The notes: generated by a model from the letters alone, not told the origin. A DNA stretch of 64,000 bases from an uncultured Flavobacteriales bacterium (GCA_963976005.1 CAXBJF010000011.1:11276-75275), one strand, 5' to 3'. Shown: positions 42,811-50,859, counted from the stretch's first letter. Numbers and translations are program-made.

Positions 42811-43028
42811 GAGGCTGTATAAAAAGTCTTTATTATTGATTTGTCAGGTTGAGCCTGTGCTGATCGAAGCCGAAGTCTCGTTACGTTTCCTTATAACTTC
42901 TACAGGCTCGACTTGACATAGTTGTTCTTTTCCTTATTGCTTCGACAGGCTCAGCTTGACAACTGTTTTCTATCGGAGCAAAGTCGAAGTACTCAATATG
43001 ACTTTAGAATTCACTTTTTATACAGCCT
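42811..43028. repeat. Family A TIR element with a different internal cargo
   Basis: Perfect 16-bp TIR AGGCTGTATAAAAAGT / ACTTTTTATACAGCCT; inside are GTCAGGTTGAGCCTGT (42843) and two inverted 21-nt units at 42897 and 42940. Confidence 0.8.
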
Positions 43029-43061: not shown

Positions 43062-45752
43062 TTAAAACTTAAAAGTAATACCGCCATTAAAGGTTGTTCC
43101 ATTAAATCCAAACTGGTTGACTTCCCAAGGATATTTAAAACGTCCACCAAGATCAGTTACAAAGTCACCTTTGGTATCAATCACATCTGGATACACATTT
43201 AATAAATTACTCACGGAAGCATTCAATGAAAATTTATTGGAGATTTCAAAATTAATAATTATGTCTGTAAGGATTTTTCCAGCAAAGGTTTGATCGTAGG
43301 CAGAATCTTCAATAGGAAGATTAGCCCCTCCAGGGCCTAATGGCGCTCCATTTAATCCATTGTTTGAATGTTGCCAGCTTACTTCCCCAAAATAGGTGTT
43401 GTTTAATGCAAAATTCCATTTGTTAATGTTATAATCAAGCCCTAGAAGTATTTTAGATTTTGGTCTGGCAGATGTAATTCTAGATTGTTCTTTTCTATTA
43501 AATATATCATAACCATTGTCCGCCAATAACTTCGGTGTTCCAATTTGTCCGTCAATTTTAGTATCATTAAAATTAGCGGCTAAGGTCGCACCCAATTTCC
43601 CATTTCCTAATTCAATGTTTGAATAACTAACCACTAAATCAACTCCTGTTGTATTGGTGTTTACGGCATTTACAAAGAATTTTAAACTGGTTATTGAATT
43701 GTCCAACAAAATTTGTTCTACAGGGTTCGTAGTACCTGAATCCCCATCAAAACCAATTTCCCCTGTAAATAGCACTCGGTTATCAACTTTAACATTATAG
43801 AAATCTACAGATAATGATAAATTAGATACTGGTTTATATGTAAAACCTGCTGATATATTTTTAGAAGTTTCTGCCGTTAATTGAGGCACTCCCAAACCTT
43901 CTCTAATAATTGGATCTACATTATTAAACGTTCCTTGGTTTGAAATTGTACCTCCAGAAACTAATGTTTGCACATTGCTTAAATAAATTTGATGTAACGA
44001 TGGTGCTCTAAAACCCGTACTGTATGAGGCCCTAATGGCACCTTTATCTCCTAATAAATACCTGCTGCTTACCTTCCAGGAAGTATTGTCTCCAAAATCA
44101 CTAAAATCTTCATACCTAACGGCTGCACCTATTAACAAGTTTTTGGTTAGTTCCCAATCTATGTCACCATAAACACCATAATTATTTCTGGTGGCATCAA
44201 CTGCATTACTTGGTTGCAACCCAGGAAATGATTGTGCTCCTCCAGCTCCAGTTGGGTTAAAATAAGACGCTGGCTCTCCTGCCTTGGCTGTAAAATTTTC
44301 TCCTTTAACTTCAGCTCCAAACCCAACACTTACCTGACCAAAATTTCTTGAAATATCTAAATTGGCAAGTATATTACTAAAAGTATAGGCCCCAACATCA
44401 AACGAGGTTGGACTGGCCGCCCCTAAATCTCTGTTAAGGCTATTATTTACGTTATAGTCCACCGCATTTCTGCCATAGGTTCCACTTAAATCAACATCAA
44501 AGCTAAACAGTTGCCATTTACTTCCCATGGTGATGCTGTTATCTCTAACATCGGTTTCAAAAGTAGGTTGGAATCCTTGGTACGTAGAACCAGCTTCATG
44601 CAATAAACTAAAAGGATCTGGAACCCAATACGGCGTTCTGTATAAAGCAAAACTAATTCCTGTCCTATAGGTTAACCCGCCAAAGGTATAAAACTCTCCA
44701 TTCCCACCTTTAAAGGGTATTGCTGCATTAAAAAACACATCCGTTTTTTTTAACTCTGGTTGCCCAACCGTCATTCCTAAATCTGGATTATCAGCTAACC
44801 ATGACCCCCAGGTAGGGTCATTGGCAGCAACTCCAAATAAAACATCGTCTCCAGGCGTTCCGGCTCTATTGGTTTTGTCTTGTTCATAATACCCCACGGT
44901 AAAATTTAAATACCCTCCATTATCTCCAATGTTAATTGCTGTGTTTAGATCAACTCCAAAATTAAAACCATCACCTTCAGTAGTTACTCCAGTACTAGCA
45001 TTAACAGTTGTATATTCAACATTCTTTTTTAGGACCATGTTAATAACCCCTGCTATAGCATCAGATCCATATTGTGCCGAAGCTCCATCGCGTAATACTT
45101 CAATTCTTTCTATGGCGGCCGCAGGGATACTTTTTAGGTCCACCCCAACTTCTCCTTTTCCTGGTGTATCATTAATGTACACTAAAGCGCTTTGGTTTTT
45201 ACGCTTTCCATTAACCAAAACCAATGTTCTACTAGGGCCTAAGCCTCTTAAATCTGCTGGGTCAAAATGTGCGGTAGCATCAGAAATTGCTTGATTGGTA
45301 GAATTAAATGACGGTACTTTATAAGTTAACATTTTATCAATTGTAGGTTGCCCCGTATTACGTAATTCATCAACCCCAATGTTATCAATTGGAACTGGTG
45401 AATCCAAAATGGTTCTAGGCTTTGATCTGTTTCCTACTAAAATAACTTCATCGAGGGCAACTCCTGCTTGCATTGTTACATTCAACACGTTTCCTGTAAC
45501 TGTAATTTCTTTCGAGTTAAAGCCAACATAAGTAATCACAAGTACGTCTCCTTTATTTGCTTTAATTGAATATTTTCCATCAAAATCGGCTGTTGTTCCT
45601 ATAGAGGTGCCTTTAATAACTATAGAAACTCCTGGCAAAGGTTGGGAAGAATCATCGAAAATTGTTCCAGAAACTTGTTGTGCTAAAACTACATTTGATG
45701 CTCCAAAAAACATTAAAAGTGTAAGCAATTTGATAGATAATAGTTTGTTCAT
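43062..45752 (-). CDS. TonB-dependent receptor with N-terminal carboxypeptidase-regulatory-like domain
   Basis: Signal peptide; plug 'LRGLGPSRTLVLVNGKR...IERIEVLRDGASAQYGSDAIAGVIN'; C-terminal F. Confidence 0.93.
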   Translation of the reverse strand: MNKLLSIKLLTLLMFFGASNVVLAQQVSGTIFDDSSQPLPGVSIVIKGTSIGTTADFDGKYSIKANKGDVLVITYVGFNSKEITVTGNVLNVTMQAGVALDEVILVGNRSKPRTILDSPVPIDNIGVDELRNTGQPTIDKMLTYKVPSFNSTNQAISDATAHFDPADLRGLGPSRTLVLVNGKRKNQSALVYINDTPGKGEVGVDLKSIPAAAIERIEVLRDGASAQYGSDAIAGVINMVLKKNVEYTTVNASTGVTTEGDGFNFGVDLNTAINIGDNGGYLNFTVGYYEQDKTNRAGTPGDDVLFGVAANDPTWGSWLADNPDLGMTVGQPELKKTDVFFNAAIPFKGGNGEFYTFGGLTYRTGISFALYRTPYWVPDPFSLLHEAGSTYQGFQPTFETDVRDNSITMGSKWQLFSFDVDLSGTYGRNAVDYNVNNSLNRDLGAASPTSFDVGAYTFSNILANLDISRNFGQVSVGFGAEVKGENFTAKAGEPASYFNPTGAGGAQSFPGLQPSNAVDATRNNYGVYGDIDWELTKNLLIGAAVRYEDFSDFGDNTSWKVSSRYLLGDKGAIRASYSTGFRAPSLHQIYLSNVQTLVSGGTISNQGTFNNVDPIIREGLGVPQLTAETSKNISAGFTYKPVSNLSLSVDFYNVKVDNRVLFTGEIGFDGDSGTTNPVEQILLDNSITSLKFFVNAVNTNTTGVDLVVSYSNIELGNGKLGATLAANFNDTKIDGQIGTPKLLADNGYDIFNRKEQSRITSARPKSKILLGLDYNINKWNFALNNTYFGEVSWQHSNNGLNGAPLGPGGANLPIEDSAYDQTFAGKILTDIIINFEISNKFSLNASVSNLLNVYPDVIDTKGDFVTDLGGRFKYPWEVNQFGFNGTTFNGGITFKF

Positions 45753-45886: not shown

Positions 45887-45916
45887 AAAAAACCTCAACA
45901 TGTGTTGAGGCTTTTT
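45887..45916 (-). terminator. Terminator between the two TBDR genes
   Basis: AAAAAA-CCTCAACA-TG-TGTTGAGG-CTTTTT. Confidence 0.7.
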
Positions 45917-45940: not shown

Positions 45941-48820
45941 CTATTTTAAGTCAAAACTTAATCTGGCAAATAAGAAACGACCACCAATTCCAAATTGTTG
46001 CGCTCTTCTTGACCAATCAAAACGACCACCACTTCTGTTGCCAAAGGCAGCATCAGCTCTGTCTGGATAAATATCTAACAAGTTGTTTGCTCCAACAGTA
46101 ATGGTAGTGCTTTCGGCTACTTTATAACCAAAAGATAAATCGGTCACGATTTTAGAACCAAAAACCTGTTGGTTAGCTATGGTATTTGTTGCTTCTGTAA
46201 CTTTCCCAAACCAAACATTTCTAAAGAATACATTGAATTTACCGGTTGTTAAACTATTTGTTAAGTTAACTTTAGATCGAGGGACAGCTTCTTCCAAATA
46301 CACCCTGCTGTCTTCAGGAAAATAAGTTCCTACCAAACCTGCATTTTCTAATACTTCGGATGCTTTTATAGCTCCAACTTTTCTAGTTTGAGAAAATGTT
46401 CCTGATAAATCATTTTTTAATTTTGCAGAGCTTCCTATTCTAACATCTTGGGTAATCACAATATCCAACCCTTTTGATTCTGTATCAATGGCATTTGCGA
46501 AAAATGAAGCTGCAGAAGCATTGGCTTGTGATAATAAATTATCCAATTCAGTACCTGTTCCTGGGCCTTCAAATTGTCCAGTATAAACAACTCTATCATC
46601 AATTCCTACCCAATAGCCATCAACCGTTAAAGTTAAATGTGCTGCAGGCATTTTAGTTGTAAACCCTACACTGATACTTCTAGAGGTTTCTTCTTTTAAT
46701 TTTGGGATGCCCAATAATTTAGCCGCTCTACTATCATTGGCAAAGGTTCCTACTTCTTGAGGGTTTCCAGCTTGATCAAATATTGTTGAGGTTGAGTTAA
46801 AATTTAATTGGTGCAGGGAAGGTGCCCTAAACCCCGTGTTAAATGCGGCTCTAAAATTAGTATTGTCACTAGCTTTAATCCTGGTGGCTAATTTAAAGTT
46901 AAGTGTAGAGCCAAAATCTGAATAATCTTCATATCGGGCAGCAAAGCTTAACAAAAAGCTTTCGGTAATATCCGATTCTATATCTAAATACCCAGCAATA
47001 CTACTTCTGTTTCTTGATAGTTCATTGTTTGGGCCAAAGCCAGGAAAAACTTGGGAGCCTCCAGGCCTATTATTGTCAAAGAAATCCAATGATGGGACTT
47101 GAGAAGCCAAAGTAATGGCCTGACCGTCGGCCGTGTATTGTGCATAAGATGCCTGTTCACCAGCCACAATATCATAGGTCTCTACTCGATATTCAGAACC
47201 AAAAGCAACGTTTGTGCCTGCAAAAATATCATCATAAAATTTGCTGATATCTAAATTAGTGGTATTCTGGGCAAATGAAAACCCGCCAGCATCAAAAAAT
47301 GTTGGCGATGCATTCTGCATAGACGCATTAAAGCTATTGCCTATGGTATAAAAGAACTCATTTCTTCCAAAGGTATTGCTAAAATCGACATCCCAATCAT
47401 TTATTTTACCTTTAATGCCTACGGCAAGTGATTTGTCCCTAATATCAGAATTGATTTCCGGCAAGAATCCATTCATATAAGCCGGTGTATAGGTTCTCTC
47501 TTGATTAGGCAATCTGTAAAAACCAGCAGCATTTCCTTGTCTCGAACTTATTCCTGCAAATGAATACAATTCGGTACCTTGATCATCTAATGGCAATGAA
47601 AAGTTTGCAAAGAAACGGCCACCACGTAATGCAGATTGACCAACACGCATGTTAAAATCGCTTGCAACCAATCCACGTGCTGCCAATTCAGCAGCTGTAT
47701 TATCAGCTCCTAAAACACCCTGTAAGTCTGCTTTGGTAGAAGCTCCGTTCAATGCAATTCCTGCTTCATTGGCATATTGAATAACATCTGAAACATCATC
47801 ATCCAATAATTTAGATAAATCATAACCATCATTATTGGCAAATCGTTCTACAGTATTATATAAGTTAAAAATATCTCCTTCCCATGCTTTCATTCTGTTG
47901 TAATCTTCCCTCACATCAAAATCACCCGTAAAATTAATGAATCCACCTTTTTCTCCCAATGATAAACCATAATTGGCACTCACATTGGTGGTTCCACCAT
48001 CAACGCCACCTGTTTGGTCGTTTGCGTTTTTTGTAAAATTTGCTCCAGTTGTAATGTTTAAATTTAATTCATTGGTGCTTCTTTTAAGTACAATATTAAT
48101 AACACCAGCAATGGCGTCAGAACCATATTGTGCGGCTGCACCATCACGTAACACTTCAATACGTTGTATAGCTGCTGCTGGAATAGCATTTAAATCAGTT
48201 CCAACACTACCACGCCCAAAAGTTCCATTTACATTTACTAAAGATGAATTGTGTCTTCTTTTCCCATTGATTAAAACCAATACCTGATCTGGGCCTAAGC
48301 CTCTTAAAGATGCAGGGTCAATATGGTCAGTACCATCAGAAATGGTTTGTGTGTTTGATGTAAATGATGGTGCCACATAATTTAAAATTTGATTTAAATT
48401 TACCTGTGGCCCTGCGGTCAACAACTCGGTTACATCAATAACATCAACAGGTACCGCGGTGTCTGTTGCTGAACGGTTTGGGTTTCTTGTTCCAATAAGC
48501 ACGACCTCGTTTAAAGCAACACCTTCATCAAGAGAAACCAAAATATTTCCTGCTTTTGAAACTACAACTTCTTGTGTATTATATCCAACAGAGGACACAA
48601 CAATTGTAACTGGAAAACCAGTTATGTTTAATTTGAAATTACCATCAAAATCGGTAGTGGTACCGTTGGTAGTTCCTTTAATAATAACGTTCGCGCCTGG
48701 TAAAGGCTCATTTGTGTTTGCTATTGAAACTGTTCCTGTTAGGTTTCCTTGAGCCATAATAGCTAAAGGAAATAACATGATCAGCTACAAGTAAAACTTA
48801 GAAAGTAAAAAATTTTTCAT
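45941..48820 (-). CDS. TonB-dependent receptor, paralog of the neighbour; probable true start 48820 with an in-frame TAG at 48785-48787 (possible pseudogene)
   Basis: Plug 'LRGLGPDQVLVLINGKRRH...RIEVLRDGAAAQYGSDAIAGVIN'; upstream in-frame MKNFLLSKFYL*LI joins MLFPLAIMA-Q. Confidence 0.88.
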
Positions 48821-49110
48821 ATATGTTTTGGATTAATTATTAGACATGCAATATAAACTTTTAAAGTCAAAACTCCTCTCTAAAGTCAAAATTATTGCAC
48901 ACGCATAGTGTTTTTTAACAGTAAATATGTTAAAATTCTGAAGTTTATTTAATGATTTATTAAAAATAATGTAGCTATCTTACATATTTACAATAAAAAC
49001 TAAATTTATTCATAAAGATTCTGATTGTAACCTAGTTAGTACTCAAAAAAAACAATAAAAAATTTGTACTCCATTGTAAATCCGTAAATTTGCACTTCAA
49101 TTTTCTAAAT

Positions 49111-50859
49111 ATGTATCGAAGTCATAATTGCGGTGAATTAACCGCTGCAAATATTAATGAACAAGTAACGCTTGCAGGTTGGGTTCAAAAAACGCGTGAC
49201 AAAGGGTTTATGTTATGGTTAGATATCCGAGACAGGTACGGCATCACCCAACTTATTTTTGATGAAGAACGCACCTCAAAAACAATTATAAATCAAGCAA
49301 AAACACTTGGTAGGGAATTTGTGATTCAAGTAAAAGGAACCGTGATTGAGCGTACTTCAAAAAATCCCAATCTTGCAACAGGTGCTATTGAAATTTTAGT
49401 TTCAGAATTAACCATTTTAAATAAAGCATTGTTGCCTCCTTTTACCATTGAAGACGACACGGATGGTGGAGAAGAATTGCGAATGAAATATCGTTATTTA
49501 GACATTCGCCGTAACCCAGTAAAAAACAGTTTGATTTTTAGACATAAAGTAGCACAAGCAGTAAGGAATTATTTGTCAAATGAAGGGTTTATAGAAGTTG
49601 AAACGCCTTACTTAATTAAGTCAACCCCGGAAGGTGCCAGGGATTTTGTGGTTCCTAGCAGAATGAACGAAGGTCAATTTTATGCCCTTCCGCAATCACC
49701 TCAAACCTTTAAGCAATTGCTTATGGTTGGCGGCATGGATAAATACTTCCAAATTGTAAAATGCTTTAGAGATGAAGATTTACGCGCTGACAGACAACCT
49801 GAATTTACTCAGATAGACTGCGAAATGGCGTTTGTGGAACAAGAAGATATTTTAAATGCATTTGAAGGGTTAACACGTCATCTTTTAAAAGAAATTAACG
49901 GAATTGAGATAGAAAAATTCCCTAGAATGCTGTATGATGATGCCATGCGATTATATGGTAATGATAAGCCAGATATACGTTTTGGAATGCAATTTGGTGA
50001 GCTTAATGAGGTTGCAAAACATAAAGATTTTGACCTTTTTAACAGTGCTGAATTAGTTGTTGGTTTTGCTGTTCCCGGAGGAAATAATTTCACCAGAAAA
50101 GAAATAGACCAATTAATTGATTGGTTAAAGCGCCCTCAAATTGGAGCCCAAGGCATGGTTTATTGCCGTTGCAATGACGATGGTACTTTTAAATCATCTG
50201 TAGATAAATTTTATAACGAAACAGACTTAGCTAAATGGGCTGAAATTACTGGAGCCAAAGCTGGAGATTTAATTTGTGTTCTTTCCGGTGACACCAATAA
50301 AGTGCGTGCACAATTAAGCGCTTTAAGAATGGAACTTGCAACACGATTGGGTTTGCGAAACCCTAAAGAATTTGCACCACTTTGGGTGATTGATTTTCCG
50401 CTGTTGGAATGGGATGAAGACACCAAACGATATCATGCCATGCACCACCCTTTTACATCACCAAAACCTGGCCAGCTGGAATTATTATCTACAAATCCCG
50501 GAGATGTAAAAGCCAATGCTTATGACTTGGTGCTTAACGGGAATGAAATTGGTGGTGGTTCTATTAGAATTCACGATAAAAAAACTCAAGCATTGATGTT
50601 TGATTATTTAGGCTTCACTCCAGAACAAGCTAAGGCTCAATTTGGATTCTTAATGGATGCTTTCCAATATGGTGCGCCCCCTCATGGTGGATTAGCCTTT
50701 GGTTTAGATAGATTAGTAGCTATATTAGCTGGACAAGAAATAATTAGGGATTTTATAGCGTTTCCAAAAAACAATTCTGGGCGTGATGTCATGATAGATG
50801 CCCCAGCACCCATTGATGATGCCCAATTAAAAGAGCTTCATTTGAAAATAAACTTATAG
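49111..50859 (+). CDS. aspS: Aspartate--tRNA ligase
   Basis: 'YRSHNCGEL', '[11 protein letters not shown]', '[16 protein letters not shown]', 'GAPPHGG.AFGLDR'; TAAATTTG -7 at 49085-92. Confidence 0.98.

Follow-up and report, generated by a model that had tools for sequence, protein, structure and literature searches.

Loss of a surface receptor is a classical route to phage and colicin resistance in Escherichia coli, with FhuA, BtuB and Fiu as examples. In the literature on nonsense alleles of TonB-dependent receptors (TBDRs) and phage resistance in Flavobacteria we found no directly relevant paper. Here we describe an amber codon within the signal peptide of a TBDR gene, termed TBDR1, carried on the minus strand (45941..48820) of a 64,000-nucleotide stretch of DNA from an uncultured Flavobacteriales bacterium (GCA_963976005.1 CAXBJF010000011.1:11276-75275); this whole stretch is hereafter called the window and all positions are counted from its first letter. 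We consider it likely, with a probability of about 0.75, that the codon represents a genuine, naturally segregating nonsense allele and an ordinary case of recent receptor loss. As in young receptor pseudogenes created by a single nonsense mutation, the lesion of TBDR1 consists of one substitution found in a narrow lineage, and a sister lineage carries an independent lesion in the neighbouring gene. Unlike in those cases, the stop lies inside the signal peptide, nearly the whole open reading frame (ORF) is kept, an in-frame ATG follows 6 nucleotides (nt) after the stop, and the host is uncultured.

Sec signals require a positive n-region together with an h-region of minimal length and hydrophobicity (PMC5875014), and in Bacteroidetes the residue at +1 after signal peptidase I cleavage is Gln, the so-called Q-rule (PMC5837995). 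The ancestral signal of TBDR1, MKNFLLSKFYLLLIMLFPLAIMA|QG, resembles other Q-rule Sec/signal peptidase I signals of Bacteroidota in its basic n-region, its hydrophobic core, Ala at -1, Ile at -3 and Gln at +1, but in the window the stop cuts off the n-region along with most of the h-region. The cleavage site I-M-A|Q, between Ala23 and Gln24 (48749..48757, minus strand), was read from the sequence and follows the Q-rule, with Gln at +1 after an A-X-A-like site (A-I-M-A|Q-G-N). TBDR1 shares with SusC/RagA transporters an N-terminal CarboxypepD_reg-like domain followed by a plug, but it differs from them in scoring far under the family cut-off and in lacking an adjacent SusD-like gene. Two intact alleles, P0013 and P0014, share the promoter region, the cleavage site and the domains of the window TBDR1. 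Both have TTG (Leu12) where the window has TAG, and P0013 differs further by K3, I6, D68, S931, alternative tracts in the plug and an amber codon in the TBDR2 gene of its genome.

TBDR1 is interrupted at codon 12 of an otherwise open receptor gene

On the minus strand the gene starts ATG(48820-48818) AAA AAT TTT TTA CTT TCT AAG TTT TAC TTG TAG(48787-48785) CTG ATC ATG(48778-48776) TTA TTT CCT TTA GCT ATT ATG GCT CAA GGA AAC, and its translation from 48820 is MKNFLLSKFYL*LIMLFPLAIMAQGN. The amber codon (48785..48787, minus strand) is thus codon 12 of an ancestral TBDR gene of 959 codons, which ends at a TAG of its own (45941-45943, minus strand). From Met15, the second ATG (48776..48778, minus strand), which lies 6 nt past the stop and is the start chosen by gene callers, the ORF 45941-48778 comprises 945 open codons. 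Plug (PF07715, 66.1 bits against a cut-off of 23.9) is followed by a C-terminal beta-barrel (TonB_dep_Rec_b-barrel, PF00593, 89.2 bits against a cut-off of 27), both above the Pfam gathering score as expected of a TBDR; CarbopepD_reg_2 scores 72 bits, and the overall architecture is CarboxypepD_reg-like, Plug and a 22-strand-type barrel. At the family level, no NCBIfam subfamily reaches its cut-off for TBDR1: the SusC/RagA model TIGR04056 gives 118.9 bits against a cut-off of 368.25 and matches residues 13-254 only. The neighbours of TBDR1 are aspS and a second TBDR gene, with no SusD-like gene beside it. The neighbourhood offers no conserved guide to the substrate, the orthologues being stand-alone genes amid unrelated housekeeping ones, such as those for an SDR, AspRS, an M20 peptidase, DHODH, GH31 and AcrB.

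The signal peptide was assessed by alignment and by reading of the sequence. The signals of the closest homologues (MKNFLRIKICLIFGLFFPLAMMAQG, MKKTLQFNFYLFVLLFSPLAMMAQG and others) are 23 residues long and align gaplessly with that of TBDR1; at the site of the amber stop they have Leu, Ile or Phe, and we do not regard the interrupted signal as a chance feature. The window allele has no contiguous N-terminal Sec signal, the TAG splitting off the n-region and half of the h-region. These results bear out the first-pass annotation of the window, made from the sequence alone, which had reported an amber codon inside the signal peptide of a 2.9-kb TBDR: sequence, frame and Pfam domains agree with it in every detail. 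The openness of the 945 codons past the stop, the restored signal with its basic n-region, hydrophobic core and cleavage before Gln, and the signal quoted there for the paralogue TBDR2, which does start MNKLLSIKLLTLLMFFGASNVVLAQQ, all held up as well.

The codon-12 TAG is a real allele found in several samples

The same TAG was found in five separate assemblies and again in two Logan runs (X1 and X2), which belong to an accession set separate from the assemblies and in which the allele was inspected in contigs, and the exact 945-amino-acid (aa) product is encoded on six public contigs. Three of these sequences, L081 (ERZ3422020), L082 (a Tara scaffold) and L083 (ERZ3421838), have a 5' region identical to that of the window, TAG included, with 0, 2 and 3 mismatches to the window, respectively, over 7-9 kb; in L088 (ERZ3421832) the TAG is found on another recombinant background. 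The Logan contigs of X1 and X2 show no difference from the window across 48500-49100, and the word depths for the TAG are 27 and 7.6 in the two run assemblies.

The first-pass annotation had left room for an assembly error. That the true codon 12 is a sense codon, hidden by a mistake in sequencing or assembly, would be conceivable for a window that is part of a metagenome-assembled genome (MAG) and for alleles inspected in contigs, but we regard it as extremely unlikely: the five assemblies sharing the TAG differ mutually by 0-3 single-nucleotide polymorphisms or by a recombinant tract and include the Tara scaffold, and the mutation replaces one base rather than adding or removing one in a homopolymer. 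Since the same TAG recurs in these five assemblies and in the two Logan runs, we reject this option. A sense codon in the source population, which would have spoken for an error, appears in none of that population's own contigs. We conclude that the TAG is a real allele across several samples and that assembly error is excluded for practical purposes.

The stop is derived, young and confined to the window lineage

In X3 and X4, whose strain is nearly identical to the window outside a few tracts, the plus strand differs from the window at 48786 (T>A), giving TTG (Leu) on the coding strand, and TTG is also found at codon 12 in X5 and X7. Comparison of the alleles indicates that the TAG arose from this TTG by a single T->A transversion of the coding strand. 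The sister haplotype L084 (NCBI MAG GCA_052740255.1, where the product is recorded as TonB-dependent receptor of Yeosuana sp.) and the Logan contig L085 both carry TTG in an uninterrupted 959-codon TBDR1, and the leader of the JGI contig L089, which encodes P0014, matches that of the window save for Leu12 (TTG). The intact alleles P0013 (WP_445956612.1) and P0014 are full-length proteins of 959 aa, 98-99% identical to TBDR1. In the populations X13 and X14, at about 94% identity, codon 12 is TTT (Phe). With a sense codon in close relatives (TTG or TTT) and a stop present in the DNA of five assemblies, codon 12 has the properties of a nonsense allele, and the TAG is a derived TTG->TAG mutation confined to the window lineage. 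Alignment of orthologues had been expected to reveal a sense codon, and it did so, as Leu, Phe or Ile in the relatives.

Codon 15 is already ATG in the TTG haplotypes, P0013 and P0014 included, and is not Met in more distant homologues. In 102 of the 117 homologue clusters 20-24 residues precede the conserved Gln, the A/G/S-Q cleavage junction being itself conserved, and in more than 100 clusters a signal of this length has a hydrophobic residue where the window has its stop; every undisrupted, full-length start call among the 117 clusters has a signal of at least 20 residues. Short N-termini, where they could be checked, were either alternative start calls on the same contigs (P0076/P0062 and P0089/P0080) or products of broken genes (P0081 and P0119). 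Met15 is not the start of any true orthologue; orthologues starting there, with the protein exported normally, would have contradicted the first-pass annotation. The 9-residue stub left by a start at Met15 is, as had been stated there, atypical for export when set beside homologue signals of 20-24 residues.

Over the 3-kb gene region the TAG-bearing contigs differ by one synonymous change (A940, in L083) and by the alternative 75-bp tract of L088. This small divergence indicates that the allele is young, although it is old enough to have reached several data sets and two recombinant backgrounds, and it fits the recent nonsense mutation proposed at the outset, near-identical haplotypes having TTG. 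The 945 downstream codons are accordingly open because the event is recent and not because the gene is demonstrably still used. The Asn at position 3 of the leader was considered as a sign of derived decay (K3N) and rejected, as Asn3 also occurs in more distant homologues.

The distribution of the stop bears directly on the idea that the first 11 codons form an upstream ORF controlling the receptor by programmed re-initiation or readthrough. Its geometry, in which a short ORF ends 6 nt ahead of an ATG, is what such a leader might look like. Yet none of the nearest haplotypes has the stop, nor do the relatives at about 94% identity or any homologue N-terminus that we examined, and the supposed leader is simply the first half of the ancestral signal peptide, with which it aligns without a gap. 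The probability that we attach to this arrangement is almost negligible; the first-pass annotation had listed it among its options, and as an evolved device it finds no support in the relatives examined, all of which lack the stop. For the same reason the stop does not behave as a programmed recoding site, of the readthrough or of the pyrrolysine type, which should be conserved among orthologues: it is confined to the window lineage.

Decoding of the amber codon as sense is improbable

Decoding of the amber by a suppressor tRNA, or through leaky termination at UAG-C, would restore the signal to its full 23 residues and give a normal receptor, and would also explain how the sister haplotype tolerates an amber codon (W315*) in TBDR2. 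Both disrupting mutations of the species are indeed ambers, and the base after the TBDR1 stop is C, UAG-C being a comparatively weak termination context in E. coli. We nevertheless consider this very improbable. In the window TAG terminates 4 of the 44 long ORFs, those of TBDR1 and of the essential aspS among them, and the only tRNA encoded there, a Ser(GGA), is no suppressor. Moreover, TAG is the sole stop codon one step away from TTG and one of two that are one step away from TGG, so that two ambers are unsurprising, and these two belong to different haplotypes. Basal readthrough, for its part, would be expected to give only a small fraction of the product. A general reassignment of TAG was also considered and rejected: reading the four terminal TAG codons as sense merely adds short tails to the ORFs.

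Predicted consequences for export

In Flavobacterium johnsoniae, which initiates without Shine-Dalgarno recognition, the determinants of initiation are A-rich (PMC6847099). The ancestral start ATG1 (48818..48820, minus strand), which aligns with Met1 of the homologues, stands in an A-rich context of this Bacteroidota type. Start contexts were scored with a position weight matrix based on 43 gene starts of the window as compared to 372 internal ATGs. ATG1 scored 5.4, which corresponds to the 67th percentile of true starts and exceeds all 372 internal ATGs, whereas Met15 scored -3.1, which places it at the 7th percentile among true starts and at the 76th among internal ATGs. Given the good context of ATG1 and the poor one of Met15, initiation is expected at ATG1.

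We propose that a TTG (Leu) codon in the hydrophobic core of a Sec/signal peptidase I signal was mutated to TAG in one lineage, and that ribosomes would since then load at the A-rich ATG1 and release a peptide of 11 residues on reaching the amber. A product re-initiated at Met15 would carry just MLFPLAIMA before the cleavage site, a stub predicted to have no basic n-region and about 4 h-region residues ahead of the A-I-M-A c-region. Most of the protein started at Met15 should for that reason stay in the cytoplasm, and the receptor would be functionally lost from the outer membrane. We infer from the sequence that, as regards export to the outer membrane, the TAG allele is either null or severely hypomorphic. 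In metatranscriptome data two small contigs were found at 46013-46212, in the 3' part of TBDR1, where the alleles are indistinguishable.

A milder outcome is conceivable, in which re-initiation at Met15 is efficient and the hydrophobic MLFPLAIMA drives enough Sec export and cleavage before Gln to sustain a smaller supply of working receptor, which would make the mutation a dimmer rather than a knockout. The in-frame ATG 6 nt past the stop has an A at -3, the A-I-M-A|Q cleavage site is intact, the promoter region is unchanged as compared to the TTG haplotype L084, and the TAG has survived, with the gene otherwise undamaged, in several samples and on two recombinant backgrounds. Weighed against these features, the context of Met15 resembles that of internal ATGs, and the stub, devoid of a basic n-region and with about 4 h-region residues, is short next to the signals of intact homologues (at least 20 residues), while Sec needs an h-region of minimal length (PMC5875014). 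The lack of further lesions is, in addition, what would be expected of any young pseudogene. We therefore hold a dimmer to be on the unlikely side, though not to be neglected, and retain the loss of the receptor from the outer membrane as the preferred reading.

A terminator, formed by the hairpin CCTCAACA-CATG-TGTTGAGG and followed by TTTTTTG, is found after TBDR1 at 45893..45910 (minus strand). TBDR1 should thus be monocistronic, and given this terminator no polarity of its nonsense codon on TBDR2 is expected.

A reciprocal amber in the neighbouring receptor and recombination in the plug domain

TBDR2 (43062..45752, minus strand) is a tandem paralogue with 40% aa identity to TBDR1 and is intact in the window. 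Its codon 315 (44808-44810, minus strand) is TGG in the window and TAG in the sister haplotype, corresponding to a C>T change on the plus strand at window position 44809. In that haplotype, where TBDR1 is intact, W315* splits TBDR2 into ORFs of 314 and 570 aa. The change was found in X3 and X4 and in two MAGs from NCBI, as well as in two Logan contigs, and the affected gene lies at L084:7023-9713 and L086:217-2907; at this codon run X8, from the same study, retains the unmutated base. The TBDR2 amber of the sister haplotype is independent of the TBDR1 amber of the window.

Two tracts of TBDR1 stand apart from the rest of the gene. Tract 1 (48389..48463, minus strand) covers codons 120-144, and the TAG is found with both of its versions, the window type and, in L088, the other type. 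Tract 2 (48008..48334, minus strand) covers codons 163-271 in the plug domain and differs between the TAG and TTG haplotypes by about 15% of nucleotides, mostly at synonymous positions. Both plug tracts are about 15% divergent in nucleotide sequence between haplotypes whose identity elsewhere exceeds 99.9%; the other-type tract has more codons ending in G or C. The tracts are recombinational imports from a diverged functional allele and no sign of decay, the plug being a mosaic. Gene conversion from TBDR2 was considered as the source of the tracts and rejected, the identity to TBDR2 being 64% for the window type and 59% for the other.

Two further discontinuities were observed around these genes. 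Within aspS (window 49500-50286) the sequence also diverges from L084, with 15 differences in 49500-49995, nearly all of them synonymous, and no blastn alignment to L084 over the following 290 bp or so (49996-50286). Within TBDR1, the Logan contigs of X1 break at window 46002-46035 and 46398-46429, which suggests co-existing strains differing near 46001/46030 (A940 synonymous, G931S) and near 46400.

A comparison of 17.7 kb between the window and its sister haplotype L084 gave, once the recombinant tracts were set aside, 1 synonymous codon difference and 6 nonsynonymous ones in the two TBDR genes; two of the 6 are nonsense changes. From window to sister, the nonsynonymous changes are N3K, L6I, *12L, G68D and G931S in TBDR1 and W315* in TBDR2. 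The flanking genes show 34 synonymous and 9 nonsynonymous codon differences. The resulting nonsynonymous excess in the receptors (Fisher p = 0.002, or p = 0.03 without aspS) rests on 7 codons, and these small numbers are to be set against our reading of the locus as one of recent receptor loss, together with the following points. The evidence for the TAG is at the level of contigs, and a minor sense allele may exist within the TAG-bearing samples. The presence of the TAG on two recombinant backgrounds and in several samples means that it is not strongly counter-selected. Finally, re-initiation or leaky termination at UAG-C could leave the receptor with some function.

Probable receptor turnover between strains

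The loss of TBDR1 is probably part of a rapid, strain-level turnover of surface receptors under relaxed or diversifying selection, with phage or other receptor-exploiting agents as a candidate cause. Near-identical strains of this uncultured marine Flavobacteriaceae species, whose sister MAGs are labelled Yeosuana sp. at NCBI, differ mainly by the knockout of one or the other of two adjacent TBDRs and by imported plug tracts. Such microdiversity is expected under phage or toxin pressure and could guide the search for matching phages in the same metagenomes.

A more specific scenario can be drawn, in which the tandem receptors serve as alternative targets of phages or bacteriocin-like toxins, negative frequency-dependent selection maintains strains with TBDR1 L12* and strains with TBDR2 W315*, and recombination in the plug adds diversity. 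We consider this scenario improbable. In a variant of it, the position of the stop in the signal peptide may have been favoured if re-initiation at Met15 left a trickle of receptor, conferring resistance while sparing part of the uptake. Recent loss of the receptor as described above is an ordinary kind of event; its population context is modestly interesting and no new mechanism is revealed. For annotation, the 945-aa protein recorded as complete from Met15 in NCBI, ENA and Tara data is the product of a disrupted gene and should be flagged.

Lesions in other lineages and minor observations

The 5' part of the gene is also damaged elsewhere. In a Lutibacter-like orthologue, 13 nt are deleted between ATTTAC direct repeats within the signal peptide (L091:1240-1300), which puts MNSKKQFLLAILSLFT out of frame with ...AIYAQSYQVSG. 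This deletion occurs in three assemblies (L091, L092 and L095), of which L091 and L095 are nearly identical in their upstream flanks; their gene bodies, both of them open, differ by about 10%. In L090 (1430-1500), TAA replaces the codon of the conserved Gln at +1 (MKNLLHLKICLFLSLLFPFAMVA*G), but this stop is unreliable and may be an error, as the same assembly (ERZ25039603) shows homopolymer frameshifts (L094). A 1-nt deletion near codon 56, seen in L093, is likewise a weaker case than the 13-nt deletion. Recurrent 5' lesions are thus real in at least one other lineage; they were drawn from a homologue search that returned near-full-length proteins only and is biased to 5' lesions, and we claim no hotspot. 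In the closest GTDB species representative, a long-read MAG at 85% aa identity, the TBDR1 orthologue has an apparent frameshift around codon 717 (L012:5109), which is probably an assembly error.

Upstream of TBDR1, two exact copies of TTTTGACTTTA lie at window 48862-48872 and 48881-48891 on the minus strand, 19 nt apart and 40-70 nt ahead of ATG1. Across the window as a whole the motif shows no enrichment (7 matches against 6.65 expected, allowing at most 1 mismatch). The two copies adjoin a TAnnTTTG-like element, TAATTTTG, and this region may be a promoter or an operator. On the far side of TBDR2, a 45-bp stretch at window 42976-43020 is matched by contigs of X1, X3 and X7 that come from elsewhere and continue into unlike sequence; it is a dispersed repeat.

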